A stretch of 13,986 bases of DNA from a virus (taxonomy: Duplodnaviria; Heunggongvirae; Uroviricota; Caudoviricetes). The notes beneath the pieces were generated by a model that made no database searches, was not told the DNA's origin, and saw only the letters and a program-made list of their open reading frames with translations. The position numbers were made by a program, and so were the translations under genes. Position 1 is the stretch's first letter; every line of letters begins with the position of its first letter. This document shows, piece after piece, positions 1,104 to 13,986 of this stretch. Location of the stretch: the IMG/VR virus record IMGVR_UViG_2609459823_000005. One strand, 5' to 3'.

Positions 1104-1192
1104 CCTTGTTTTTGAATCAATGCCCTGGCTTGAATTTTGCATGTCGGTGCCACAGTAACAACTCGCAAACGCAAAGTAGATGGAATAAACTC

Positions 1193-2281
1193 GTGAAAAT
1201 ATTGGTCACAGGTGGGGCAGGTTTTATTGGATCTGCTGTCGTCCGTAATATCATTAAGAATACTCAGGATTCTGTAGTTAATGTTGATAAATTAACCTAT
1301 GCGGGCAATCTTGAATCGCTGGTTGAAATCGAAAACAGCGCCCGTTATGCTTTTGAATGTGCAGACATTTGTGATGCTGAGGCGATGTCGCGTATTTTCG
1401 CCACTCACCAGCCTGATGCTGTTATGCATCTGGCTGCAGAAAGCCATGTAGATCGCTCGATCACCGGCCCTGCTGCTTTTATTGAGACAAATATCGTGGG
1501 CACCTATGTGCTGCTTGAAGCCGCACGTAAATACTGGTCTCAACTTGATGAAACAAGTAAAGCCGCGTTCCGCTTTCATCATATTTCAACGGACGAAGTC
1601 TACGGCGATTTGCCGCATCCTGATGAAGTCCCCGCTGGCACCGCCTTGCCGCTGTTTACCGAGAAAACCCCTTATTCTCCCAGCAGTCCGTATTCCTCAT
1701 CGAAAGCGTCAAGTGACCATTTAGTACGTGCATGGCGCCGTACTTACGGCTTGCCGACCCTGGTGACGAATTGCTCAAATAACTATGGCCCATACCATTT
1801 CCCTGAAAAACTTATTCCGCTGATCATTCTTAATGCATTAGCTGGTAAGCCGTTACCGGTGTATGGCAATGGCGAGCAAATTCGCGACTGGCTATTTGTT
1901 GAAGATCATGCACGCGCCTTATATAAGGTCGTCACTGAGGGGGTTGCGGGTGAGACTTACAATATCGGTGGTCACAATGAGCGTAAGAATATTGAAGTCG
2001 TAAATACTATTTGTACTATTCTGGACGAAATCATTACTGCGAAACCTAATAATATTAGTAGCTTTGCAGAATTAATTACTTATGTCACCGACCGTCCGGG
2101 CCATGATCTGCGTTACGCCATTGATGCGAGCAAAATAAAAGATGAACTGGGCTGGGTACCGCAGGAGACTTTTGAATCAGGTATCCGCAAAACGGTTGAA
2201 TGGTATTTGACTAACCAGGACTGGTGGCAGCGTGTGATGGATGGATCATATGCTGGTGAACGCCTGGGGCTCGCAGAATAA
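1193..2281 (+). CDS. rmlB: dTDP-glucose 4,6-dehydratase
   Basis: Preferred start is the in-frame GTG at 1193, giving [14 protein letters not shown] (Rossmann GxxGxxG) and a length of ~362 aa. The catalytic YSSSK (YxxxK) and other blocks ([21 protein letters not shown]) closely resemble E. coli RfbB as recalled. The track's ATG at 1106 is rejected because that extension overlaps JUMPStart/ops. Confidence 0.92.
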
Positions 2282-2296
2282 AATCGTAAGGACGGA

Positions 2297-3172
2297 ATGA
2301 TGAAAGGTATTGTATTAGCTGGCGGTTCTGGAACTCGTCTTTATCCGATTACTCAGGGTGTGTCAAAACAGTTATTGCCTGTTTATGACAAGCCGATGGT
2401 TTTTTACCCAATATCAGTTCTAATGTTGGCAGGTATTCGTGACATTTTGATTATCACGACGCCGGAAGATATGGCCGCGTTTCAACGCCTGTTGGGAGAC
2501 GGCTCTCAATTTGGTATTCGCCTTTCCTATACTGTCCAACCTTCGCCGGACGGTTTAGCGCAGGCATTTATTCTGGGTGAAGAGTTCATTAATAATGAAC
2601 CTTGTGCTCTGGTGCTGGGCGACAATATCTATTTTGGTCAGAGTTTTGGTAAAAAACTCGAGGTTGCCTCTCAGTTGACCCAAGGTGCGATGGTATTCGG
2701 TTATAAAGTACAGGATCCTGAGCGTTTTGGTGTGGTTGAATTTGATGCGAACTACAAGGCATTGTCCATTGAAGAAAAACCACAGAAGCCAAAATCCAGT
2801 TGGGCAGTAACCGGTCTCTATTTTTACGACAAAAACGTTGTGGAAATGGCGAAGCAAGTCAAACCATCTGCTCGCGGTGAACTCGAAATTACGACACTTA
2901 ACCAAATGTATCTTGAACGCGGTGAGCTTCAGGTAGAGTTGCTCGGACGTGGTTTCGCATGGCTTGACACCGGCACACATGACAGTCTGGTTGAGGCTTC
3001 ACAGTTTATTCATACCATTGAAAAAAGGCAGGGTATGAAAGTCGCTTGCCTTGAAGAGATTGCGTTTCGCAATGGATGGATCGGCAGAGAACAACTTTTA
3101 GCGCAGGCAAAACTGTTCAGCAAAAATGATTATGGTAAGTATCTAAAAGTATTGGCTGGAGAACATGAATGA
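2297..3172 (+). CDS. rmlA: glucose-1-phosphate thymidylyltransferase
   Basis: The N-terminus [16 protein letters not shown](x)[13 protein letters not shown] is the nucleotidyltransferase signature, and the ~290-aa protein closely resembles E. coli RfbA. There are tandem ATGs at 2297 and 2300; the RBS aaggacgg (2288-2295) favours 2300. The stop overlaps the rmlC start (ATGA at 3169-3172). Confidence 0.92.
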
Positions 3173-3705
3173 ACGTCATTGACACTAAAATAAGCGATGT
3201 GAAGATTATTGAGCCAAAAGTCTTTGGTGATGAACGAGGGTTCTTTTTAGAAACATTTGAAAAAAAGAGATATCAAACCCTTTTGAATATCGATATGGAT
3301 TTTGTACAGGATAACCACTCACGTTCCAGCAAAGGCGTACTTCGTGGGCTTCACTTTCAGCGCAATAATCCTCAGGGGAAACTTGTTCGAGTAGTTCGTG
3401 GCGAAGTGTTTGATGTTGCTGTTGATATTCGTAAAGACTCACCAACCTATGGGGTGTGGGAAGGTGTAATTTTGTCAGAAACGAATAAAAAGCAATTCTG
3501 GATCCCACCGGGACTTGCTCATGGTTTCCTGGTACTCTCGGATATTGCTGATTTCGAATATAAATGTACCGACTATTATGATAGCAGTAGTGAAGGCTGT
3601 TTAATCTGGAATGATGAGCAAGTTGGGATTGCATGGCCAGTAATAGACGCTGAGATTAAACTTTCAGCAAAAGATGCTGTTGGTAAGTTACTGCGTGACC
3701 TATAA
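3169..3705 (+). CDS. rmlC: dTDP-4-dehydrorhamnose 3,5-epimerase family protein (RmlC-like cupin)
   Basis: The 178-aa protein has [11 protein letters not shown], the catalytic His in VLRGLHFQ, the GKLVR lysine, [10 protein letters not shown] and a Tyr in FEYK, which is the RmlC fold signature. Whether it performs a full 3,5-epimerisation or a single epimerisation cannot be told from sequence. Confidence 0.8.
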
Positions 3706-3716
3706 GTTTTACTAAC

Positions 3717-3746
3717 AGGCGTAGATATTTTCTACGCCTATTTTTT
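3717..3746 (+). terminator. Intrinsic-terminator-like hairpin between rmlC and wzm
   Basis: A perfect 9-bp stem aggcgtaga (3717-3725) / tctacgcct (3731-3739) with a 5-nt loop is followed by a T-run at 3741-3746. A TATAAT hexamer at 3754-3759 lies just before the wzm start. Confidence 0.55.
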
Positions 3747-3760
3747 GAGGCGCTATAATA

Positions 3761-4540
3761 GTGTTTAATAGTTTCATTCAAGGCCTGATAAATTATCGTG
3801 TTGTACTAAAACAATTAATAAGACAACAAGTAACGCTCAGGTATCGCAGAACAATGTTCGGTTTTTTATGGACCCTGCTTAATCCTCTTCTGAATATGGC
3901 AGTAATAGCGACTGTCTTTTCAATCGTAATGAAATTTCAGATAAGAGACTACGCCATTTTTCTCTTCTCTGCAGTTATTCCTTGGACTATGTTTTCAAAT
4001 ATCATTTCACAATGTTCTAATTCATTGATAGCAAATGAAAATCTATTTAAAAAAATATACTTACCAAAACAGATATTTATAACCGCTAGCGCAGTATCTG
4101 TTTTTATTGATTCGCTTCTGAGTACTATCTGTTTATTCATCATTGCATATTTCTTTGGCGCAAAATTAAGTTTGGCATTGATGTTTCTTCCAGTTTCATT
4201 TGCGATCTTATTTATATTCGCTTATGGTTTGGGTCTGATTTTTTCTGTAGTTTCTGTTTTTTTGCGCGACATGCAGTATCTGATCGGTGTGATTTTGCAA
4301 GCTCTATATTTTATGACCCCTATCATATATCCCGTTGATGCTGTTCCGGAACAGTACAAATGGGTTTTTGCATGGAATCCTATGTACTATTTTGTTGATT
4401 TATTTAGGGATCCAATCTACAACAATCAATTCCCTCCAGCTTATTCATTACAGCTTTGTGCGCTGACTGCCATTATTTCACTTTTGGTTGGTTTGTATGT
4501 ATTTAAAGTAAATGACAAAAAAATTATCTTCAGGTTGTAG
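3761..4540 (+). CDS. wzm: O-antigen/polysaccharide ABC transporter permease (ABC-2 family)
   Basis: The N-terminal motif LRYRRTMFGFLWTLLNPLL is typical of Wzm/KpsM, and the rest of the 259-aa protein is strongly hydrophobic with multiple predicted TM segments. Start is assigned to GTG 3761 with GAGG at 3747-3750; the ATG at 3854 would remove the conserved motif. The 3' end overlaps the wzt reading frame. Confidence 0.82.
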   Translation: MFNSFIQGLINYRVVLKQLIRQQVTLRYRRTMFGFLWTLLNPLLNMAVIATVFSIVMKFQIRDYAIFLFSAVIPWTMFSNIISQCSNSLIANENLFKKIYLPKQIFITASAVSVFIDSLLSTICLFIIAYFFGAKLSLALMFLPVSFAILFIFAYGLGLIFSVVSVFLRDMQYLIGVILQALYFMTPIIYPVDAVPEQYKWVFAWNPMYYFVDLFRDPIYNNQFPPAYSLQLCALTAIISLLVGLYVFKVNDKKIIFRL

Positions 4541-4541
4541 T

Positions 4542-5291
4542 ATGGAATCTAAAATTATTTTTAAAAATGTCTCTCTCGTATTTGATGAACATCAGCAACG
4601 AGGTCTGACGTTCAAAGAGTTATTTGCACGCACTCTCTCCGGTCGGAATAACGCTATAAAGGCGAATAAGAGAAAAGCTTTGGATTCAATAAGTATCGAG
4701 ATAAACCATGGAGAGCGAATCGGTATTGTCGGAAGCAATGGGGCAGGGAAAAGTACGTTCCTAAAAACACTTTGTCGTATTTATGAGCCAACCTCTGGTG
4801 AAATAAGCATATCAGGTAATATTGCACCGTTACTTGAGATTGGGGCTGGATTTAATCCAGAACTAAGCGGAAGAGAAAATATATATTTGAATGGTGCAAT
4901 TCTGGGCCATAGTATTTCTGAGCTTAAAAGTTTGGAAGCAGAAATTATTTCATTTTCAGAATTAAGTGAATATATTGATACACCTGTCAAATATTATTCA
5001 ACGGGCATGTATCTTAAATTAGCATTTTCAATTGCGACGGCAATCAAGCCTGATATTTTAGTTTTAGATGAACTGTTTGCTGGCGGTGACGCGGAATTTG
5101 TTGCTAAAGCTAAAAAAAGAATGGAACATTTCATCGCGGAATCAAGCATTATGTTTTTTGTATCTCATCAATTAGATTTGCTGCAGGAATTATGTACCCG
5201 CGTAATATGGATCGACCATGGTAAATTAATTGCTGATGGTGTACCAGACAAGGTAATTGAAGCATATTTGAATAAAGGTCATCATGATTAA
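4542..5291 (+). CDS. wzt: O-antigen/polysaccharide ABC transporter ATP-binding protein, short form without a C-terminal carbohydrate-binding domain
   Basis: Walker A GIVGSNGAGKST, ABC signature YSTGMYLKL, Walker B ILVLDELFAGGD and an H-loop (FFVSHQ) are all present. The track ORF begins at ATG 4512, but ATG 4542 (MESKIIFKNVSL) immediately follows the wzm stop and gives a typical N-terminus. At ~250 aa the protein is a nucleotide-binding domain only. Confidence 0.85.
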   Translation: MESKIIFKNVSLVFDEHQQRGLTFKELFARTLSGRNNAIKANKRKALDSISIEINHGERIGIVGSNGAGKSTFLKTLCRIYEPTSGEISISGNIAPLLEIGAGFNPELSGRENIYLNGAILGHSISELKSLEAEIISFSELSEYIDTPVKYYSTGMYLKLAFSIATAIKPDILVLDELFAGGDAEFVAKAKKRMEHFIAESSIMFFVSHQLDLLQELCTRVIWIDHGKLIADGVPDKVIEAYLNKGHHD

Positions 5292-6045
5292 TATTATAAT
5301 AGTCAGCCATCAAAATTTAGCTGACATTGATAAAATTCTCACAGAACTTGCGGGTGAAAATGATTATTATACTATTTATGTTCGTGACAATGTTGCTGAT
5401 GAGAATTTGAAGCGCCTTTGTTCTGATTATAACGTCTCATATTGTTCTGGTATTCGCCGAGAAGGCTTTGCCCTTAATAATAATATTGCTGCCGAAAAAG
5501 TATTACACTCATGTGAAATAGCTGATGATGATTATTTCCTGTTTATGAATCCTGATGCATATATTATTCGCGACGAGCTGATCAAACTCTCAACTATTTT
5601 GAGCGAAAAAAAATACGATATGTTCACTGTTGATCTGTATAGTAATGATGAATATACAATAAGAGATCCTTCCATTCGATATTTTCCAACGCTAAAAACA
5701 TTTCTATCTTCTTTTTTATTTGATACTAACAAAAGTATTATTAACAGGGATGCCATTCATCAAGATTTCGACCTGGATTGGTGTGCTAGCTCATTCTTTG
5801 GCGTTAAAGTTGGTTTGTTTAAAAGACTTAATGGCTTTGATTCCCGATTCTTTATGTATTGTGAAGATGTGGATATCTGTTACAGGGCTAAAAAATTAGG
5901 AGCCAAGCTTAGTTATATTGCAAATGTAAAAGCAATACACTACACTCAGAAAAATAGTAAAAAGATGCTCACTAAAAATTTTTATTGGCACGTTAAAAGT
6001 GCCATATTGTTTTTATGGAAAAAGCATACCCTGTCAAAAGGTTAA
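5284..6045 (+). CDS. GT2-family glycosyltransferase, WbbL-like dTDP-rhamnosyltransferase (candidate Rha to GlcNAc-PP-undecaprenol adaptor transferase)
   Basis: The 253-aa protein shares blocks with the E. coli WbbL rhamnosyltransferase as recalled from memory: IIIVSH, VRDN, DDDYFLFMNPDAY, DWCASSF, NGFD, FFMYCEDVDICYR, AIHY and WHVKS. The start overlaps the wzt stop by 8 bp. Confidence 0.6.
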   Translation: MINIIIVSHQNLADIDKILTELAGENDYYTIYVRDNVADENLKRLCSDYNVSYCSGIRREGFALNNNIAAEKVLHSCEIADDDYFLFMNPDAYIIRDELIKLSTILSEKKYDMFTVDLYSNDEYTIRDPSIRYFPTLKTFLSSFLFDTNKSIINRDAIHQDFDLDWCASSFFGVKVGLFKRLNGFDSRFFMYCEDVDICYRAKKLGAKLSYIANVKAIHYTQKNSKKMLTKNFYWHVKSAILFLWKKHTLSKG

Positions 6046-6050
6046 GATAA

Positions 6051-6944
6051 ATGTATTCTGTTGTGATGGGATTCCGCGAAAACTATAAACATTATGGGTA
6101 CACTACTCTTTTTTCTTTATTAACAAATAATAAAAACTCTTTTTTTTCAATCTATCTCCTTTCAGATAATCTGGATTTTGCATTTTTTAAAAAACTGGAG
6201 GATGTTTTTGCTTGCAAAATCATCCCTATTTCTATTTCGGCTGATCATATTGAAAATGTAAATTGTGGCTATCTTTCCTTTGGGACACTAATCCGCTTAT
6301 TAATCGGTGATTATCTTCCTGCTAATGTCGAAAAGGTTCTATACCTTGATGCTGATTTGATAATTGATGGCGATATTCATGAACTTCTTAATTATGAGTT
6401 AGGTTCACAGTATGCGGCAGTCGTAAGATCGAGTGCTCCTTATAAGCATCTCAAGGACATTAGGATAACATCCGAGCAGTACTTTAATGCGGGGGTGATA
6501 CTTTTTAATATGGAGATGTGTAGAAAAGATGATATTTTCATAAAAAGCCTTGATTTGTTAAAACGGAATAATTTTAAATATTTAGATCAAGATGCACTTA
6601 ATATTGCAATGGTAAACAATGTAAAATATGTTGATTCTAAATGGAATTTCGACTCATTTAGAGCAAAAACAATCTTACTTGATAGGAGTTATGCAAATAA
6701 ATACCCTGCAATAGCAATTTATCATTTTACAGGGCGTGACAAACCATGGTTTAAACATTGCATCAACCAGTATCAGAGTATTTATCTTCGTTATTTCGCT
6801 GAAATTCTAGGCTATGATGTTATCAATAATAAAAATAAATTTCAGTATTTTAAATTTAAACTGATTAAATTCTTATTCAGTAACTTTGTAACCCGTAAAA
6901 TTATTTACCATTTAAGAAACTATATTCGGACTAATATTCACTAA
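6051..6944 (+). CDS. GT8-family retaining glycosyltransferase (RfaJ/RfaI/LgtC-like; alpha-hexosyltransferase)
   Basis: GT8 hallmarks are present: the DxD motif in LYLDADLIIDGD, FNAGVILFN, YLDQDALN and the C-terminal HFTGRDKPW (H-x-x-G-x-x-KPW). Length is 297 aa and the donor sugar cannot be assigned from sequence. Confidence 0.75.
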   Translation: MYSVVMGFRENYKHYGYTTLFSLLTNNKNSFFSIYLLSDNLDFAFFKKLEDVFACKIIPISISADHIENVNCGYLSFGTLIRLLIGDYLPANVEKVLYLDADLIIDGDIHELLNYELGSQYAAVVRSSAPYKHLKDIRITSEQYFNAGVILFNMEMCRKDDIFIKSLDLLKRNNFKYLDQDALNIAMVNNVKYVDSKWNFDSFRAKTILLDRSYANKYPAIAIYHFTGRDKPWFKHCINQYQSIYLRYFAEILGYDVINNKNKFQYFKFKLIKFLFSNFVTRKIIYHLRNYIRTNIH

Positions 6945-6953
6945 GGACATTTT

Positions 6954-8333
6954 GTGGAGACTATACAAATAGCCACTGGAGTAAGTCGTAACTTCTTTGA
7001 CCCATTGAGTGTCATGCTTACTTCCTTGCTTGAAAATAATCAATCACATAAAATCAATTTTCATGTTTTGCACAGTGATTTTACGGATGATGATGAAGAA
7101 AAATTTAGCCTTTTGTTTACTAAATATGAAAACCTGGGGCTTAAATTCATCAAGTTAGATGAATCTAAATTAGAAGGGCTTCCCCTTCTGCAACATTTCA
7201 AGATCTCAACGTATTTTCGAATTCTGGCGCCAGCTGTTTTAAGTGAATATGATAAACTCCTTTATCTCGATGCCGACATTATTGTTGACAATGATATTCT
7301 GGAATTATGGCAGACCGATGTCACCAACTATACCCTCGCAGCAGTTCGTGAAGAGAGTATTGTCGCGTTAGATAAACGTTTGAGAATGCCTGCCAATTAT
7401 AAGTATTTCAATGCTGGTGTTGTTGTATTAAATAGTAAAAAAATTCGAGAAGAAAATAAGTTCGGTCCTGTTATCGATTATCTAAAAGAAAATATCAATG
7501 AGATCCTTTATCTTGATCAGGATGCTTTAAATGCTATTCTCTACGATGAATGGTTAGAAATAGACGAGAAATGGAATTATCATAATACCTTTATCCTGAA
7601 AAAAAATAATAACAAAGAGCATATCTTATTAGATAAACCAGTTATTATTCATTATACTGGTCCAGTCAAACCATGGGATGCGGAAAGTTCACATATATTT
7701 AAAAGCCGCTATTGGCATTACAAGAAAATATTAACAGGGAGTGTCGATGAAATTAAAGCTGGTTTTAACATACATAGTACGCTTGCTAAAAGAATAATAA
7801 AATATGCATATAGAGTTATTCTTTCCAATTATTATTTAAGAAAGCTGATTCTTAAAACAAATACATCATTAAAGCAGAGTGAGCATTTTGCGAAATATTA
7901 TTTTAAGTTTAAGGAACGTTTTGCTCCTGCACCTCAGATAATGTCGTCATTCGAAGCGAAGTTAGTTCAAGTTGATGTACCACTTCTAGAATCAACCATG
8001 GATTATGGTTTTTTCAGTATAAGGGAGTTCTTGAACTATATACAAATTTCTGGATATGTTTTCAAAAAAGAGTTTTCTGATAGAAATACTAATAAATATT
8101 TTGTCTTGAGAAACAGTGTCGACCCTAATTTGCTATATTGTTTTAAACTTAACAGTCATGACCATGTTTGGATTAATGATATATATAATGATGGTAATGA
8201 CTATTCAAAAAGTGGGTTCTTTAATTTCATCGGCAAAAGAGAGCTTAAAAGTGGAAGGTATGAAGTTGGATTAATCGTCCAAAATTCAAAAGGTGTACAT
8301 TATAAAATGACTGACACTACAGTAATTATTTGA
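6954..8333 (+). CDS. GT8-family glycosyltransferase with an extra ~190-aa C-terminal extension (two-domain protein)
   Basis: The N-terminal ~260 aa carry the GT8 motifs LYLDADIIVDND, FNAGVVVLN, YLDQDALN and HYTGPVKPW. The C-terminal portion has no GT8 similarity and contains a block (ISGYVF ... LKSGRYEV) that is also seen in the next protein. Start is GTG 6954 with RBS AAGGA at 6943-6947. Confidence 0.75.
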   Translation: METIQIATGVSRNFFDPLSVMLTSLLENNQSHKINFHVLHSDFTDDDEEKFSLLFTKYENLGLKFIKLDESKLEGLPLLQHFKISTYFRILAPAVLSEYDKLLYLDADIIVDNDILELWQTDVTNYTLAAVREESIVALDKRLRMPANYKYFNAGVVVLNSKKIREENKFGPVIDYLKENINEILYLDQDALNAILYDEWLEIDEKWNYHNTFILKKNNNKEHILLDKPVIIHYTGPVKPWDAESSHIFKSRYWHYKKILTGSVDEIKAGFNIHSTLAKRIIKYAYRVILSNYYLRKLILKTNTSLKQSEHFAKYYFKFKERFAPAPQIMSSFEAKLVQVDVPLLESTMDYGFFSIREFLNYIQISGYVFKKEFSDRNTNKYFVLRNSVDPNLLYCFKLNSHDHVWINDIYNDGNDYSKSGFFNFIGKRELKSGRYEVGLIVQNSKGVHYKMTDTTVII

Positions 8334-8343
8334 CGAGGAATCC

Positions 8344-9564
8344 ATGGATATTAAAATTTATTCGTCTTTTTATAAAAAATACTTCATTTATAAAAGCGAC
8401 ATTGTAGAACCTGTTTTTGTTGGTGCGGCCGAAAAGAATAATGATTTAGGCATCATTGGTGATGATACTGGCGATAATATTAGCGATAAAAACGGCACGT
8501 TCAATGAATTAACTTTAATTTATTGGGTCTGGAAAAATACTACAAATCAAGATTATGTAGGCTTCTGTCATTATAGAAGATATTTTATAAATAGAAGCAT
8601 CAGTAAATTTGAAAAAGCATTGCATCTTCTGATTCCACGCGATAAAGAGCGTAGAGAGCGTAAATTATTACGTTTGTTACAGCAGTTTGATAAAAATTGT
8701 GAATCCGAATTGAAAGGATTTGATATAGCGTTACCTAAGCCTATTGTTATGAATCGTACTTTGCGTGAACAATATGCTGATTATCATGATGGCGCGCATT
8801 ATGAGGAAATGGGTAAGGTTATTCGAGAATTACGTCCTGACATGTGGCCTGCTTACGAAGATGCGTCAAATCGAAATACTTTCTTCATCGCTAATATGTT
8901 CATTTTTAGCCGCAAGTATTTTGATCAATTTTGCGAGTTTGCCTTTCCGGTTCTTTTTGAACTAGAGAAAAGGTTAGAAGTGCCGGATGATATGTATCAA
9001 AAACGTATTTTTGGATACTTAGGTGAGCGGTTGGTAACAATCTTTGTAAATTATTTATATCAACAAAAGAATGTTAAATTCAAATATTTTGATCTATTAA
9101 ATACTGATGTTATTTTTTCAAATTACAAATCGTATCTAACCGAAAAAAAATTAATAAGCAGTAAAAATAAAAACTACGTCACTTTTGGTGCTGTTGATAA
9201 TCTAATCAAAATGTCAAACAATTTTTACTGCATGAATGGTTGGGTTATAATTAAAGATCGCGAATCCTATAATGTTACGGTTCAAATTGAGTTATATAGT
9301 GATGAAAACACTATTATGCTTAATAGCGAAAGACAGGATCGGCCTGATGTAACCCGGCACTTTATCAATGTTCATGATGGGTACGTTAATTACGATAATT
9401 GCGGCTATTACACTAGTTTTAAATGTGATGAGATTAAAAGTGGTGAATATAAAATTAAGTTTCATGCATTTGATAAAATAGAGAAAACAACTTCAATTTT
9501 TTATGTTTATGACTGTTTTTTAAAGAAACATAAAAATGAAGTTGAGCTTGTGAGGTTACCATGA
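8344..9564 (+). CDS. DUF4422-type putative glycosyltransferase (WbbI/WbbM-N-like, candidate galactofuranosyltransferase) with a C-terminal extension
   Basis: The motifs ELTLIYWVWKN, VGFCHYRRYF and GYLGERLVTIF match my recollection of the DUF4422 family, which includes known Galf-transferases; this is not verified by a profile search. The C-terminal ~110 aa (NGWVI ... IKSGEYKI) resemble the C-terminus of the preceding protein. RBS GAGGA at 8335-8339; the stop overlaps the glf start (ATGA). Confidence 0.6.
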   Translation: MDIKIYSSFYKKYFIYKSDIVEPVFVGAAEKNNDLGIIGDDTGDNISDKNGTFNELTLIYWVWKNTTNQDYVGFCHYRRYFINRSISKFEKALHLLIPRDKERRERKLLRLLQQFDKNCESELKGFDIALPKPIVMNRTLREQYADYHDGAHYEEMGKVIRELRPDMWPAYEDASNRNTFFIANMFIFSRKYFDQFCEFAFPVLFELEKRLEVPDDMYQKRIFGYLGERLVTIFVNYLYQQKNVKFKYFDLLNTDVIFSNYKSYLTEKKLISSKNKNYVTFGAVDNLIKMSNNFYCMNGWVIIKDRESYNVTVQIELYSDENTIMLNSERQDRPDVTRHFINVHDGYVNYDNCGYYTSFKCDEIKSGEYKIKFHAFDKIEKTTSIFYVYDCFLKKHKNEVELVRLP

Positions 9565-10730
9565 TTAGTTATGATTACATTATTGTAGGCTGCGGTCTTT
9601 CTGGTATTGTTCTGGCAAATAATATTGCTGAGAAATTAAATAAAAAAGTGCTTATTATTGAGAAGCGCGATCATATCGGAGGAAACTGTTACGATTACTA
9701 TGATGAACATGGTGTCCTTGTACATAAATATGGTCCGCATATTTTCCATACAAATTATAAAGATGTCTATGACTACCTTGATCAATTCACTGAATGGTAT
9801 GTTTATCAGTTCCAGGCACGAACACTGATTGATGGTAAAAAAACATTTTTGCCCTTCAACCTGAACACGATGAAGGATATTCTTGACGAGCATTTATATG
9901 ACAAGATATCTAAAAAACTCATCGAAGTTTATGGTTATGATAAAACCGTACCTATTTTCGAGTTAAAAAAATCAGAGGATGAAACCATCCAATGGTTGGT
10001 TGACTATATTTACGATAAAGTCTATGTGAACTATATCGCTAAACAATGGGACATGAAACCCGAAGACCTCGACAAGAGTGTGCTTGAACGTGTTCCCGTA
10101 TATATTTCTCGCGATAATCGATATTTCAAAGACAAATATCAAGTTATGCCACGAGACGGTTATACGGTTATGTTCAACCGGATGTTGGCAAACAAAAACA
10201 TACATGTTCTGTTGAATGCTAATGCAGACGATTTTGTCACGCTGACCGATAAGCATGAAGTTCACTTCATGGGCAAGCCATTTGAAGGCAAGTTGATTTA
10301 CACCGGTCAGATTGATCATCTTTTCAATTATAAATTTGGCGAGTTACCTTATCGTTCCTTGCGCTTTGATTTTGTTAATTACAAAAAAGAGTTCTTCCAG
10401 GAAGTGGCTATGGTTAGCTACCCAAATAATTATGATTTCACTCGTATTACGGAAAGTAAGCATTTGACCGGGCAGGATTGCAAAACGACCACTGTTGTTT
10501 ATGAATATCCCCAGAATTATGATCGTAATGATCCTATCAAAGATGTACCTTATTATCCTGTGCCAAGAGCCGATAACCATGAACTTTATGCAAAATATTC
10601 AGAGCTTGCTGGTAAGTATAAATCTTTGATACTGGTTGGTCGTTTAGCTCAATACAAGTACTACAACATGGATCAGATGATCAAAGTTGCCCTTGATACA
10701 TTTAAAGAAATTCAAGCTGGAGAAAAGTAA
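9561..10730 (+). CDS. glf: UDP-galactopyranose mutase family flavoprotein (NDP-hexopyranose mutase)
   Basis: The N-terminal FAD-binding YDYIIVGCGLSGIVLAN ... KKVLIIEKRDHIGGNCY and HKYGPHIFHTN closely parallel E. coli K-12 Glf as recalled, with conserved blocks throughout the 389 aa. A dTDP-fucopyranose mutase (Fcf2-like) cannot be excluded from sequence alone. Confidence 0.85.
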   Translation: MISYDYIIVGCGLSGIVLANNIAEKLNKKVLIIEKRDHIGGNCYDYYDEHGVLVHKYGPHIFHTNYKDVYDYLDQFTEWYVYQFQARTLIDGKKTFLPFNLNTMKDILDEHLYDKISKKLIEVYGYDKTVPIFELKKSEDETIQWLVDYIYDKVYVNYIAKQWDMKPEDLDKSVLERVPVYISRDNRYFKDKYQVMPRDGYTVMFNRMLANKNIHVLLNANADDFVTLTDKHEVHFMGKPFEGKLIYTGQIDHLFNYKFGELPYRSLRFDFVNYKKEFFQEVAMVSYPNNYDFTRITESKHLTGQDCKTTTVVYEYPQNYDRNDPIKDVPYYPVPRADNHELYAKYSELAGKYKSLILVGRLAQYKYYNMDQMIKVALDTFKEIQAGEK

Positions 10731-11662
10731 TGAAGACTATTTTAATTGTTGGTGGTTCTGGCTTCATGGGTGCGAATTTTACTGAATACTTTGTTGCGAA
10801 AGGCTACAAGGTTATTAGCTTCAGTAATTCACCAACCCGTATCCAGCATGAAAATGTGGTAAATGTTTGCGGTGATAGCCGTGATGCCGAAGCTATTAAT
10901 GAAATTTTTGTTAATCACAAAATTGATTTGGTTGTTTTTACGTTGACGAGTTTTTGGGTGGTTGATGGGGTGAGCTCCTATCAAGATTTGACCGCCATTA
11001 ACCTGACTGCGTTTATCGATGTACTGAATATCATGAAGCGTCACAATGTTAATGAAGTGATTTACATCTCTTCTGGTGGCTCTATCTATGGAGAGTCCGA
11101 TAAGCCGATTCCGGAAGATTCACCGCTCTGCCCGGTCAGTTTTTATGGCTGGATCAAAGAAGCGGCAGAAAGCTATCTTAAATATGAAGCCCGTATTAAT
11201 CCCCATTTGCGCTATCTTGTATTTCGTCCTTCCAATGTTTACGGAAAATATCAGCAGCTCAACCGCATCATTGGTGTAGCGCTTAAAAATACACATTTGG
11301 ACATCCCAATGAATATTTATGGTGGTGCGGATACGAAGAAAGACTATATTTATATCGATGATTTCTGTGAGATCATCTTTAATATCTTGAATAAAAATGT
11401 CTGGAACGAAACGTACAATATTGGTTCTGGTGTCGGAACCAGCATTCGAGAAATTCTGGATCTTGCTCAGGAAGTTGTGAATAAGCCACTTGCTGTTGAG
11501 TATGGAAAACAGAAAGAGGGTGATATCAGTTATAGCGTATTAGATGTTGAGAAAGTTAAGGCTGTAACTGGTAAGCAAAGCTTCACCAACGTCAAAGACG
11601 GCATGCGTAAAATGTATCCGTACGTTGTCGAAGAACTGGCACGTCTGGCAGCGAAGGCCTAA
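10730..11662 (+). CDS. NAD(P)-dependent epimerase/dehydratase (extended SDR) family protein; candidate nucleotide-sugar 4-reductase or 4-epimerase
   Basis: Rossmann motif IVGGSGFMGANF at the N-terminus and catalytic YGWIK (YxxxK) preceded by ISSGGS. Length is 310 aa and the start overlaps the glf stop (TAATG). Precise activity is not assignable by eye. Confidence 0.7.
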   Translation: MKTILIVGGSGFMGANFTEYFVAKGYKVISFSNSPTRIQHENVVNVCGDSRDAEAINEIFVNHKIDLVVFTLTSFWVVDGVSSYQDLTAINLTAFIDVLNIMKRHNVNEVIYISSGGSIYGESDKPIPEDSPLCPVSFYGWIKEAAESYLKYEARINPHLRYLVFRPSNVYGKYQQLNRIIGVALKNTHLDIPMNIYGGADTKKDYIYIDDFCEIIFNILNKNVWNETYNIGSGVGTSIREILDLAQEVVNKPLAVEYGKQKEGDISYSVLDVEKVKAVTGKQSFTNVKDGMRKMYPYVVEELARLAAKA

Positions 11663-11862
11663 TAGCTTATCCTGCTTCTTGAGCAAGAGATGATTGTAAT
11701 GGTTTTGTTAACACTTTTTTGCTCAATAGTGGGCTAGTCCTTTAAAACTTTTTTAGGTTAACATGTTAGTCACGTATCCCGACGGCGAATGCGGCGTCGG
11801 GAATCCACACCTGACAGGAGTTTTGCATGCCTAAGCAACAAATCGGCGTTGTTGCTTAGGCC

Positions 11863-13233
11863 GTGATGGGGCGCAACCTGGCGCTTAACATCGAAAGCCG
11901 TGGCTATACCGTTTCCGTTTTCAACCGCTCCCGCGATAAGACCGAAGAAGTGATTGCCGAGAACCCCGGCAAGAAGCTGGTTCCGTATTATACCGTGAAA
12001 GAGTTTGTTGAATCCTTAGAAACTCCCCGTCGCATCCTGTTAATGGTGAAAGCGGGCGCTGGCACAGATGCTGCTATTGACTCCCTGAAACCCTATCTGG
12101 AAAAAGGCGACATCATTATTGATGGCGGTAACACCTTCTTCCAGGACACCATTCGTCGTAACCGCGAACTGTCTGCTGAGGGCTTTAACTTTATCGGTAC
12201 CGGTGTGTCCGGTGGTGAAGAGGGCGCACTGAAAGGCCCATCCATCATGCCTGGCGGTCAGAAGGATGCCTATGAACTGGTCGCACCGATCCTGACCAAA
12301 ATTGCAGCCGTTGCCGAAGATGGCGAGCCCTGTGTGACCTATATCGGTGCTGACGGTGCGGGCCATTACGTTAAAATGGTTCACAACGGTATCGAATATG
12401 GCGACATGCAGTTGATTTCAGAAGCCTACTCTCTGCTGAAAGGCGGTCTTAACCTGTCTAACGAAGAGCTGGCCACCACTTTTAGCGAGTGGAATAAAGG
12501 CGAGCTGAGCAGCTACCTGATCGACATTACCAAGGACATCTTCACTAAAAAAGATGAAGAGGGTAACTATCTGGTCGATGTGATTCTCGATGAAGCGGCC
12601 AACAAAGGTACGGGTAAATGGACCAGCCAAAGCTCGCTGGATCTCGGCGAACCGCTCTCCCTGATCACCGAATCCGTATTCGCACGCTATATCTCGTCGC
12701 TGAAAGAGCAGCGCGTTGCCGCATCTAAAGTTCTGAGCGGTCCGCAGGCCCAGCCTGCTGGCGATAAAGTGCAGTTTATCGAGAAAGTCCGTCGCGCATT
12801 GTATCTCGGTAAAATCGTCTCTTATGCCCAGGGTTTCTCTCAGTTGCGTGCTGCGTCTGACGAATACAACTGGGATCTGAACTATGGCGAAATCGCGAAA
12901 ATTTTCCGCGCTGGCTGCATCATTCGTGCACAGTTCCTGCAGAAAATTACCGATGCATACGCTGAAACACCGGCAATTGCTAACCTGCTGTTGGCACCTT
13001 ACTTTAAGAAAATTGCCGATGAGTATCAGCAGGCTTTGCGTGATGTTGTAGCCTATGCCGTACAAAATGGTATTCCGGTACCGACTTTTGCCGCTGCGGT
13101 TGCCTATTACGATAGCTACCGTGCTGCGGTACTGCCGGCAAACCTGATTCAGGCTCAGCGTGATTACTTTGGCGCACATACTTATAAACGTACTGATAAA
13201 GAAGGTGTATTCCATACGGAATGGCTGGATTAA
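11863..13233 (+). CDS. gnd: 6-phosphogluconate dehydrogenase (decarboxylating), N-terminal region disrupted
   Basis: The 456-aa ORF matches E. coli Gnd over essentially its whole length ([17 protein letters not shown] ... GVFHTEWLD). The conventional start is ATG 11827, preceded by RBS AGGAG (11816-11820), and would encode MPKQQIGVVA before an in-frame TAG at 11857-11859. The intact ORF therefore restarts only at GTG 11863 / ATG 11866 and lacks the first strand of the NADP-binding fold. Confidence 0.8.
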
Positions 13234-13264: not shown

Positions 13265-13288
13265 CCTCCGGCATAGCCGGAGGTTTTT
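13265..13288 (+). terminator. Rho-independent terminator downstream of gnd
   Basis: An 8-bp GC-rich stem cctccggc (13265-13272) / gccggagg (13276-13283) with loop ata is followed by TTTTT at 13284-13288, about 30 bp after the gnd stop. Confidence 0.7.
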
Positions 13289-13364
13289 CAAATGCGCCTA
13301 TAAGGCTCTCTTACCAGCCGCGCCCTAACAGGCGCACACGATCTGACATTTGCATCCAACTTCG

Positions 13365-13745
13365 TTACTTACGGCCCGTAAACGGGCTGCCCGGATAGGG
13401 AATCGATAACTGCTCTCCCATTTTATCCTCTTCAAGCTGGTGCTTTATGTAATCCTGTATCTTCGCCGTGTTCTTACCCATCGTATCGACGTAATACCCT
13501 CTGCACCAGAACTCCCTGTTCCTGTATTTGAATTTCAAATCACCAAACTGCTCGTAAAGCATCAGACTGCTTTTCCCTTTCAGATATCCCATAAAGCCTG
13601 ATACGCTCATTTTGGGCGGGATCTCCACAAGCATATGGATATGATCTGCACAGCATTCAGCTTCCAGAATCCGTACACTTTTCCACTCACACAGCTTTCT
13701 CAAAATACTGCCTGTTGCTCTACGCTTCTCTCTGTAGAACACCTG
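13365..13745 (-). pseudogene. tnpA: IS200/IS605-family (IS200-like) transposase tnpA, 5'-truncated by IS1 insertion
   Basis: The minus-strand ORF encodes FYREKRRATGSILRKLCEWKSVRILEAECCADHIHMLVEIPPK ... YPGSPFTGRK, which matches IS200 TnpA as recalled, including the HuH motif (HIHML). About 27 N-terminal codons are missing; the match stops at 13745, where IS1 sequence begins. Confidence 0.85.
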
Positions 13746-13986
13746 GGTAATGACTCCAACTTATTGATAGTGTTTTATGTTCAGATAATGCCCGATGACT
13801 TTGTCATGCAGCTCCACCGATTTTGAGAACGACAGCGACTTCCGTCCCAGCCGTGCCAGGTGCTGCCTCAGATTCAGGTTATGCCGCTCAATTCGCTGCG
13901 TATATCGCTTGCTGATTACGTGCAGCTTTCCCTTCAGGCGGGATTCATACAGCGGCCAGCCATCCGTCATCCATATCACCACGTCA
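13746..13986 (-). mobile_element. IS1 insertion sequence, terminal ~240 bp (one end at 13746; the rest lies beyond the window)
   Basis: From 13746 the sequence reads GGTAATGACTCCAACTTATTGATAGTGTTTTATGTTCAGATAATGCCCGATGAC..., the canonical IS1 terminal sequence as recalled, and it contains the 3' end of insB on the minus strand. Confidence 0.9.
13761..13986 (-). CDS. insB: IS1 transposase InsB, C-terminal part (partial; the 5' end is beyond the window)
   Basis: The minus-strand translation [72 protein letters not shown] matches the IS1 InsB C-terminus as recalled. The ORF is open to the window end. Confidence 0.85.

Follow-up and report, generated by a model that had tools for sequence, protein, structure and literature searches.

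A conserved gnd leader stem-loop of putative function beside an O-antigen cluster

Expression of gnd, which encodes 6-phosphogluconate dehydrogenase, is regulated by growth rate after transcription initiation, through occlusion of the ribosome-binding region, and work of the Wolf laboratory reportedly puts the length of the E. coli K-12 gnd leader at 56 nt. In MG1655 this leader reads ...tgTATACTtatttgcGAACATTCCAG-GCCGCG-agcattcag-CGCGGT-gatCACACCTGACAGGAGtatgtaATG, with TATACT replacing the TAACAT found in the window (the whole 13,986-nt stretch of DNA analyzed here). The K-12 motif GAACATT lies at −56 from the ATG, matching a 56-nt leader, and we take transcription to start there; it is a CACAT-like motif placed 7–8 nt past the −10 hexamer.

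A Term-seq study of K-12 (PMC7815308, supplementary files 1 and 3) lists an RNA 3′ end at 2,101,288 on the minus strand (NC_000913.3), which is 20 nt ahead of the gnd start codon. Its average count is 26,940, it is listed in one of the three growth conditions (PMC7815308), and it is absent from the main-text discussion (Adams et al., 2021; PMC7815308). Judging by its position in the files, the sheet in question would be that for M63-glucose. Mapped on L138, the MG1655 locus, the end corresponds to the A of GATCA, 5 nt past the last paired base of a stem homologous to the one in the window. The published list was filtered with mapped transcription start sites (TSSs), and 3′ ends likely to belong to an upstream gene on the same strand were dropped (PMC7815308); the TSS filter of Adams et al. 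(2021) therefore implies a mapped TSS upstream of the K-12 hairpin. From these data, K-12 RNA contains the homologous stem, and a discrete 3′ end is marked by it. Here, we describe the corresponding stem-loop in the gnd leader of the window, follow it through the gnd leaders of Enterobacterales and weigh the roles that it might have.

The gnd leader of the window and its surroundings

The window carries an O-antigen cluster and gnd between insertion sequences, with the following features.

1–771: 3′ part of an IS600 transposase gene, 99% identical to E. coli copies
1065–1103: JUMPstart element (Rfam, 59 bits)
1106–11662: O-antigen cluster of the ABC-transporter type, comprising rmlB, rmlA, rmlC, wzm, wzt, glycosyltransferases, a Glf-type mutase and an epimerase/reductase
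9561–10730: Glf-type mutase
10730–11662: 310-aa short-chain epimerase/reductase, at the end of the cluster
From 11663: 164-nt intergenic region, then gnd
13290–13986: 3′ flank, IS200C interrupted by IS1

The galF gene is missing, and the IS600 copy adjoins JUMPstart (1–1103). In the cluster rmlB, rmlA and rmlC are present and rmlD is absent; with the mutase and the epimerase/reductase at its end, it is reminiscent of dTDP-6-deoxyhexofuranose pathways, for instance the fcf1/fcf2 pathway in E. coli O52. Between rmlC and wzm, just past the rmlC stop (3705), a 9-bp inverted repeat (AGGCGTAGA ... TCTACGCCT) occupies 3717–3739. Sister contigs of about 13–14 kb carry the same IS elements at their ends, so the window is probably a whole short-read contig. 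The gnd gene is about 85% identical to typical E. coli gnd, and neither 11640–11900 nor the O-antigen genes (3700–11660) found a counterpart by megablast among 5,426 complete E. coli genomes. IS600, IS1 and IS200C in the flanks are 99–100% E. coli-like, and the downstream DNA of a sister contig is E. coli-like too. This composition points to an IS-rich genome of the E. coli/Shigella type with an imported O-antigen/gnd segment.

The leader and its promoter box are laid out as follows.

11758–11764, + strand: box TTAACAT of the putative gnd promoter, with the −10-like hexamer TAACAT at 11759–11764 (by homology)
11771–11772, + strand: likely gnd transcription start, the C/A of tCAcgt (by −10 spacing and CACAT alignment)
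11777–11784, + strand: 5′ arm of the leader stem, tcccgacg (sequence, RNAfold)
11785–11794, + strand: 10-nt loop, gcgaatgcgg (sequence, RNAfold)
11795–11802, + strand: 3′ arm of the leader stem, cgtcggga (sequence, RNAfold)
11803–11815, + strand: C/A-rich linker atCCACACCTGAC, predicted to be unpaired in the leader (conservation, folding)
11816–11829, + strand: Shine-Dalgarno (SD) sequence AGGAG (11816–11820), 6-nt spacer and gnd ATG (11827–11829; sequence)

The two arms are perfect reverse complements over 8 bp, six of which are G-C pairs, and the stem ends 13 nt before AGGAG, or 14 nt before GGAG. The original prediction of an 8-bp stem with a 10-nt loop 13 nt before AGGAG was thus borne out on both sequence and RNAfold, which keeps the stem in the MFE as well as the centroid structure and offers two possible inner pairs within the loop (c11786-g11793 and g11787-c11792). 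Taken by itself, the hairpin is only moderately unusual. When the 164-nt intergenic region was shuffled 5000 times with its dinucleotides preserved, 1.8% of the shuffles had a perfect inverted repeat of at least 8 bp with a loop of 3–12 nt, and the leader segment has a folding energy of −19.1 kcal/mol (z of about −2.0 to −2.9 and p of about 0.04 against shuffles). In the whole window only two such repeats have 6 or more G/C per arm, where 0.07 would be expected; the second is the gnd terminator (13265–13283). It is the comparative data given below, rather than these window statistics, that argue against chance. A search with Rfam covariance models returned no match overlapping 11777–11802 at E ≤ 10.

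The TTAACAT box stands at the position of the K-12 TATACT hexamer, and cctGAGTTAACAT is conserved, with its spacing to gnd unchanged, in Enterobacter, Kosakonia, Citrobacter, Serratia, Yersinia, Pantoea, Erwinia, Providencia and Photorhabdus. We assign the gnd promoter by this homology, because a simple sigma-70 scan called no + strand promoter at the gnd leader, where the −35 is poor. Transcription would start at about 11771–11772, 7–8 nt past the −10-like hexamer and in alignment with the conserved CACAT motif. The hairpin begins 12 nt downstream of the box and, by homology with K-12, would span about +6 to +32 of a gnd leader of roughly 56 nt; the linker that follows it is kept among Enterobacteriaceae gnd leaders as CCACACCTGACAGGAG. 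Homology with K-12, the Term-seq end in that strain and the TSS filter together suggest that the stretch containing the hairpin is transcribed as part of the gnd mRNA.

For RNA that reads through from the O-antigen operon, RNAfold predicts pairing between AAAACUUUUUUAGGUU and ACCUGACAGGAGUUUU on either side of the hairpin (11744–11759 with 11810–11826), and the unusual spacer GGAGTTTTGC, which in most relatives is TATGTA, adds to this pairing. The predicted pairing would occlude the SD; transcripts from about 11771 are without its upstream strand.

Just downstream of the leader, the start of gnd carries a lesion, on which the hairpin had been thought to bear.

11829–11861, + strand: perfect 13-bp palindrome GCCTAAGCAACAA/TTGTTGCTTAGGC with a 7-nt loop, containing TAG at codon 11 (11857–11859; comparison with sister isolates)

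A change from GGTATG to GCTTAG, at 11855, 11857 and 11858, places TAG at codon 11. This stop precedes the NADP-binding glycine-rich motif, and gnd is therefore inactivated. Two sister isolates, L004 and L007, carry TTGTTGGTATGGC instead of TTGTTGCTTAGGC and have an intact, 468-aa Gnd. The ancestral quasipalindrome, composed of GCCTAAGCAACAA, the 7-nt loop and TTGTTGGTATGGC, has exactly three mismatches; the three substitutions are exactly these, each base now being complementary to the left arm, and the predicted stability of the palindrome goes from −12.9 to −21.4 kcal/mol. The window and L007 show six differences in 5.9 kb, three of them at 11855, 11857 and 11858. Quasipalindrome correction by template switch is a known mutation mechanism, and the gnd lesion appears to bear its signature. 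The TAG allele occurs on two slightly different SNP backgrounds (L010 and L011 differ slightly from the window), the truncated gnd ORF is found in 76 index blocks, and many public contigs (277 index blocks) encode the upstream 310-aa protein without any difference. Nine of these contigs match the window over 238 bases, from the upstream stop into gnd, save for three positions inside gnd. The leader is 100% identical before the intact gnd of L004 and L007 and before the TAG-allele gnd of the sister isolates. Since the same leader precedes intact genes, the hairpin is not linked to the lesion, and its proposed relevance to the anomaly at the 5′ end of gnd falls away.

Stem-loops in gnd leaders of Enterobacterales

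To place the leader among its relatives, we scanned species-representative genomes once with a pattern built on the SD and the opening codons of gnd, which yielded 120 loci, mostly from Enterobacterales. No curated family exists for such leaders; the element was defined from the 63 distinct leaders that contain the box, which form the comparison set, together with K-12. They share a common order: the box cctGAGTTAACAT, about 6 nt, a CACAT-like motif, a few nucleotides, the stem-loop, a C/A-rich linker (tgaCCACACCTGAC in its Enterobacteriaceae version), AGGAG, 6 nt and ATG. A hairpin of at least 5 bp ending 11–18 nt before GGAG is present in 44 of the 63. The distance from the 3′ end of the stem to GGAG has its mode at 14 nt (23/63), the value found in the window, and lies between 13 and 17 nt in 39 leaders. 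Over the segment from box to SD, the folding energies of the 63 leaders have a mean z of −1.46, with 89% below 0 and 38% at p ≤ 0.05.

The paired sequences themselves vary widely. Thirty-six leaders have contiguous outer pairs, and among these we found 24 distinct 5-bp base stems, with five to six pair types at each stem position. When the 3′ arms were re-dealt among the sequences, 58.6% of positions paired (maximum 72% in 2000 trials) against 100% observed, a figure that is inflated by our having picked the stems through folding each sequence. Less biased measures are the folding-energy and stem-distance statistics of the 63 leaders given above and a MAFFT alignment of the 26 closely alignable class-A leaders, which was not fitted to structure. 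In this alignment a 6-bp helix is 96.8% paired, compared with 17–63% for controls slid along the sequence. One of its pairs is C-G in 15 sequences and U-A in 10, the commonest outer pair is G-U, and none of 500 shuffles reached the observed covariation score. The loop varies among taxa in both sequence and length, from 3 to 10 nt or more. Examples of the stems are as follows.

cccgccg/cggcggg: Enterobacter wuhouensis (L100) and E. coli ETEC1720 (L001)
cccgtagac/gtctacggg: L124
ctcgtagcc/ggctacgag: L106
gccgcg/cgcggt: Kosakonia, Lelliottia and K-12
gctgcg/cgcagt: Klebsiella and Kluyvera
acctgtt/aacaggt: Serratia and Yersinia
gtcagc/gctgac: Providencia
ccaccggg/cccggtgg and gcatggtgttac/gtaacaccatgc: further group stems of the survey

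The nearest leader types to that of the window are those of Enterobacter wuhouensis and of a few E. coli (ETEC1720). The window and these two differ in the stem by one compensatory double change, from A-U (11782-11797) to C-G. The type is common to the Enterobacter-like leaders L100, L124 and L106 and to a few E. coli (L001), and is not that of K-12. As in the rest of the element, the stem of the window sits between box and SD, its distance falls within 13–17 nt and its changes are compensatory. When 12 class-A leaders were used for a covariance model, it recovered the window (31 bits, E = 0.004) and misregistered the divergent stems, that of the window included; its alignment was left out of the pair counts because those stems stood in the wrong register. 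A MAFFT/RNAalifold alignment of six Enterobacter-type leaders set the 3′ arm of the window off by one column, so that its pair table understates pairing, and we replaced that table with base-anchored stems computed in Python.

The stem is not universal. Nineteen of the 63 leaders (about 30%) and many E. coli alleles are without a clear hairpin here; L003 (E. coli HL15), for instance, is AT-rich at this position, and the K-12-type leader occurs in only 537 of the 5,426 genomes. Because these leaders and alleles lack a clear stem, the hairpin is dispensable for gnd expression; it is helpful at most, not essential. The comparison with gnd leaders of reference strains, which the original prediction had proposed as a check, settles what kind of feature this is. 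In structure and position it is an ordinary conserved leader that stands before normal gnd genes, K-12 included, which is the outcome that the original prediction had named as counting against it, and we regard it as an ordinary, conserved gnd leader stem-loop whose function is putative.

Two further observations came from the survey. Typical enterobacterial gnd leaders and coding starts also appear in records labeled as Arthrobacter (L015, L119), Chryseobacterium (L124), a Pseudobutyrivibrio MAG (L090) and a Solirubrobacterales MAG (L077), probably through contamination or mis-binning of public assemblies.

A 20-nt block, ATCGCACCAATCACTACCCA, is conserved ahead of gnd in Serratia, Yersinia, Erwinia, Pantoea, Providencia and Photorhabdus (L014, L092, L084, L017, L035 and L111), about 25–45 nt upstream of the TTAACAT box, and ends 18 nt before the −10-like hexamer; its counterpart in the window (11721–11740) is degenerate. 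The block resembles the MarA/SoxS/Rob marbox consensus, AYnGCACnnWnnRYYAAAY, in class-II geometry. If real, it would tie gnd to the oxidative-stress regulon, which already includes zwf.

Candidate roles of the stem-loop

We favor, at a probability of about three in four, a reading in which the hairpin is the Enterobacter-type variant of a stem-loop conserved in position and structure in Enterobacterales gnd leaders, most likely an RNA-level structural module that acts as an exonuclease barrier. The promoter of gnd itself (−10-like TAACAT at 11759–11764, start at about 11771) would transcribe the hairpin. In the RNA the stem-loop would work as a structural module independent of sequence, because arms and loop vary freely and only pairing and position are conserved. 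It would fix how the leader folds ahead of the SD and the single-stranded C/A-rich linker, and it may stop 3′-to-5′ exonucleases. After cleavage of the mRNA, or an early end of transcription in the ribosome-binding region, a short and stable 5′ leader fragment would then be left. The existence of the stem, its position and its covariation are observed, as are the lack of terminator features, the identity of the leader before intact and broken gnd and the RNA 3′ end close behind the homologous K-12 hairpin; the role of the stem and the start site in the strain that carries the window are deduced. In an in silico look at a role as insulator of the translation initiation region, shuffling the 5′ arm left the probability that SD-AUG is unpaired nearly as it was (0.52 native vs 0.51, p = 0.2, a weak test), and deletion of the hairpin brought it to 0.47 (vs 0.52 native, p = 1e-4), a small effect.

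The 3′ end mapped in K-12 also invites a regulatory interpretation, which we consider unlikely: the gnd leader might hold a regulated attenuator, that is, a premature termination site (Rho-dependent or factor-assisted) that tunes gnd expression, for instance to growth rate, and releases a short 5′ UTR RNA. Such a site would fit the discrete and fairly abundant K-12 end, 5 nt past the homologous hairpin and seen in only one growth condition, as well as the linker, whose C/A-rich and G-poor composition (CCACACC) is rut-like; growth-rate-dependent occlusion of the gnd ribosome-binding region, mentioned at the outset, would moreover expose the leader to Rho. However, the hairpin has no U-tract and so does not qualify as an intrinsic terminator, Rho would have a very short untranslated stretch ahead of the SD on which to load, and exonuclease trimming of any cleaved or terminated RNA would equally leave a 3′ end 5 nt past the stem. 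Nor does the K-12 end have a Rho score, because it is absent from the LB 0.4 sheet (Adams et al., 2021; PMC7815308). We find it similarly doubtful that the stem-loop is the core of an uncurated, widely conserved cis-regulatory gnd leader of Enterobacterales. In that case the promoter-proximal hairpin would set a premature 3′ end and a stable 5′ UTR fragment, as in the K-12 Term-seq data, and, jointly with the marbox-like block conserved in many genera upstream of the −10 box, would make the level of 6-phosphogluconate dehydrogenase follow growth rate or oxidative stress by way of termination or decay within the leader.

The original prediction had left the choice between a leader structure and the terminator of the upstream operon. 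A transcription terminator or 3′ stabilizer of the O-antigen operon, which runs from rmlB to the 310-aa epimerase/reductase and ends at 11662, is in our view very improbable. What speaks for it is a G+C-rich hairpin in an intergenic region, 115 nt past the upstream stop codon, with no other convincing terminator found in 11663–11776 and with a co-directional upstream neighbor at 45 of 56 loci. The terminator of gnd, 32 nt past its stop codon and with a 3-nt loop, shows what is missing.

13265–13289, + strand: intrinsic terminator of gnd, CCTCCGGC-ata-GCCGGAGG followed by TTTTT (inverted-repeat statistics, sequence)

Unlike that terminator, the leader stem is followed by AATCCACACC, with no T-run, and a terminator scan detected nothing at 11777–11802. 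The conserved −10-like box also stands upstream of the hairpin, whose spacing is constant with respect to the SD of gnd, not to the upstream stop codon. The hairpin is still there at the 11 of 56 loci where the nearest upstream ORF is divergent, for example in Photorhabdus (L111, L130), Providencia (L035, L079), Serratia rubidaea (L067) and Scandinavium (L062). The O-antigen operon moreover has a JUMPstart/ops element; such elements recruit RfaH, which makes RNA polymerase resistant to termination. Of the two alternatives, then, the leader structure is upheld by position and conservation, and the terminator is set aside for its lack of a U-tract, the box upstream of it and the divergent neighbors.

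A DNA operator, with the palindrome serving a dimeric repressor at +6 to +32 of the gnd promoter, is more improbable still. The perfect dyad does lie just past the presumed start, a typical operator position, but the arms differ among taxa with their symmetry kept (the 24 base stems), the loops range in length from 3 nt to 10 nt or more where a protein operator would conserve sequence and spacing, and G-U pairs, which make sense only in RNA, are tolerated. Least credible of all is a chance inverted repeat without function: its frequency in shuffles of the 164-nt region (1.8% for an 8-bp repeat) is not vanishingly low and some gnd alleles have no hairpin, but the same distance to the SD recurs in most Enterobacterales leaders, with compensatory changes.

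We also considered a dispersed repeat of the REP/BIME type and rejected it: the 39-mer 11770–11808 had no match in the 5,426 complete E. coli genomes at E ≤ 10 and is single-copy in the window. Within the hairpin region, ATGCGGCGT is a short identity to the REP core; we treat it as a coincidence, because the 39-mer is not a dispersed repeat in E. coli.

The favored reading, a conserved RNA-level stem-loop, makes the hairpin mainly a negative result for this window, since it explains neither the inactivated gnd nor the end of the O-antigen operon. Its wider interest is that a gnd leader stem-loop has been kept by compensatory evolution across Enterobacterales despite the recombination hot spot beside polysaccharide clusters. 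No curated RNA family covers it, which makes it a cheap candidate for a reporter or northern study, with a modest expected pay-off.

Comparison with known hairpins

With intrinsic terminators, the hairpin of the window shares a G+C-rich, perfect 8-bp stem; it differs from them by its missing U-tract, by its loop of 10 nt and by following a promoter box. Their short loops (3–8 nt) contrast with the 10 nt found here, which shrink to 4 nt only if the inner pairs form across a G-G mismatch.

Protective hairpins of the ompA type act with very few unpaired 5′ nucleotides. Like the hairpin of the ompA 5′ UTR, that of the window is a stable stem near the 5′ end of an mRNA with a single-stranded ribosome-binding region downstream. 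Unlike it, gnd leaders have about 5 (window) to about 10 (K-12 type) predicted unpaired 5′ nucleotides, with 8–10 in the class-A leaders. A 5′ tail of about 5–10 nt means that 5′-end-dependent access of RNase E or RppH is probably not blocked, and we rejected the classic 5′-terminal protective hairpin because the predicted single-stranded tail is too long.

Closer are the hairpins found at processed 3′ ends by Term-seq (PMC7815308), in that the K-12 end lies 5 nt past the stem, inside a 5′ UTR, without a U-tract. This likeness is drawn from K-12 RNA.

The closest described counterpart is the K-12 gnd leader itself. The arms are unrelated in sequence (tcccgacg in the window vs gccgcg in K-12), the window stem has more pairs (8 bp, or 10 if the inner ones are counted, vs 6) and its hairpin is more stable (−19 vs about −9.5 kcal/mol), and the 5′ tail is shorter (about 5 nt vs 10 nt). 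In both leaders the stem ends 14 nt before GGAG, and the C/A-rich linker of K-12, CACACCUGAC, has its counterpart in the window. Around its stem-loop GCCGCG-agcattcag-CGCGGU, K-12 shows the same succession of elements as the window: −10, start, 5′ tail, G+C-rich stem, linker, AGGAG, 6 nt and AUG.
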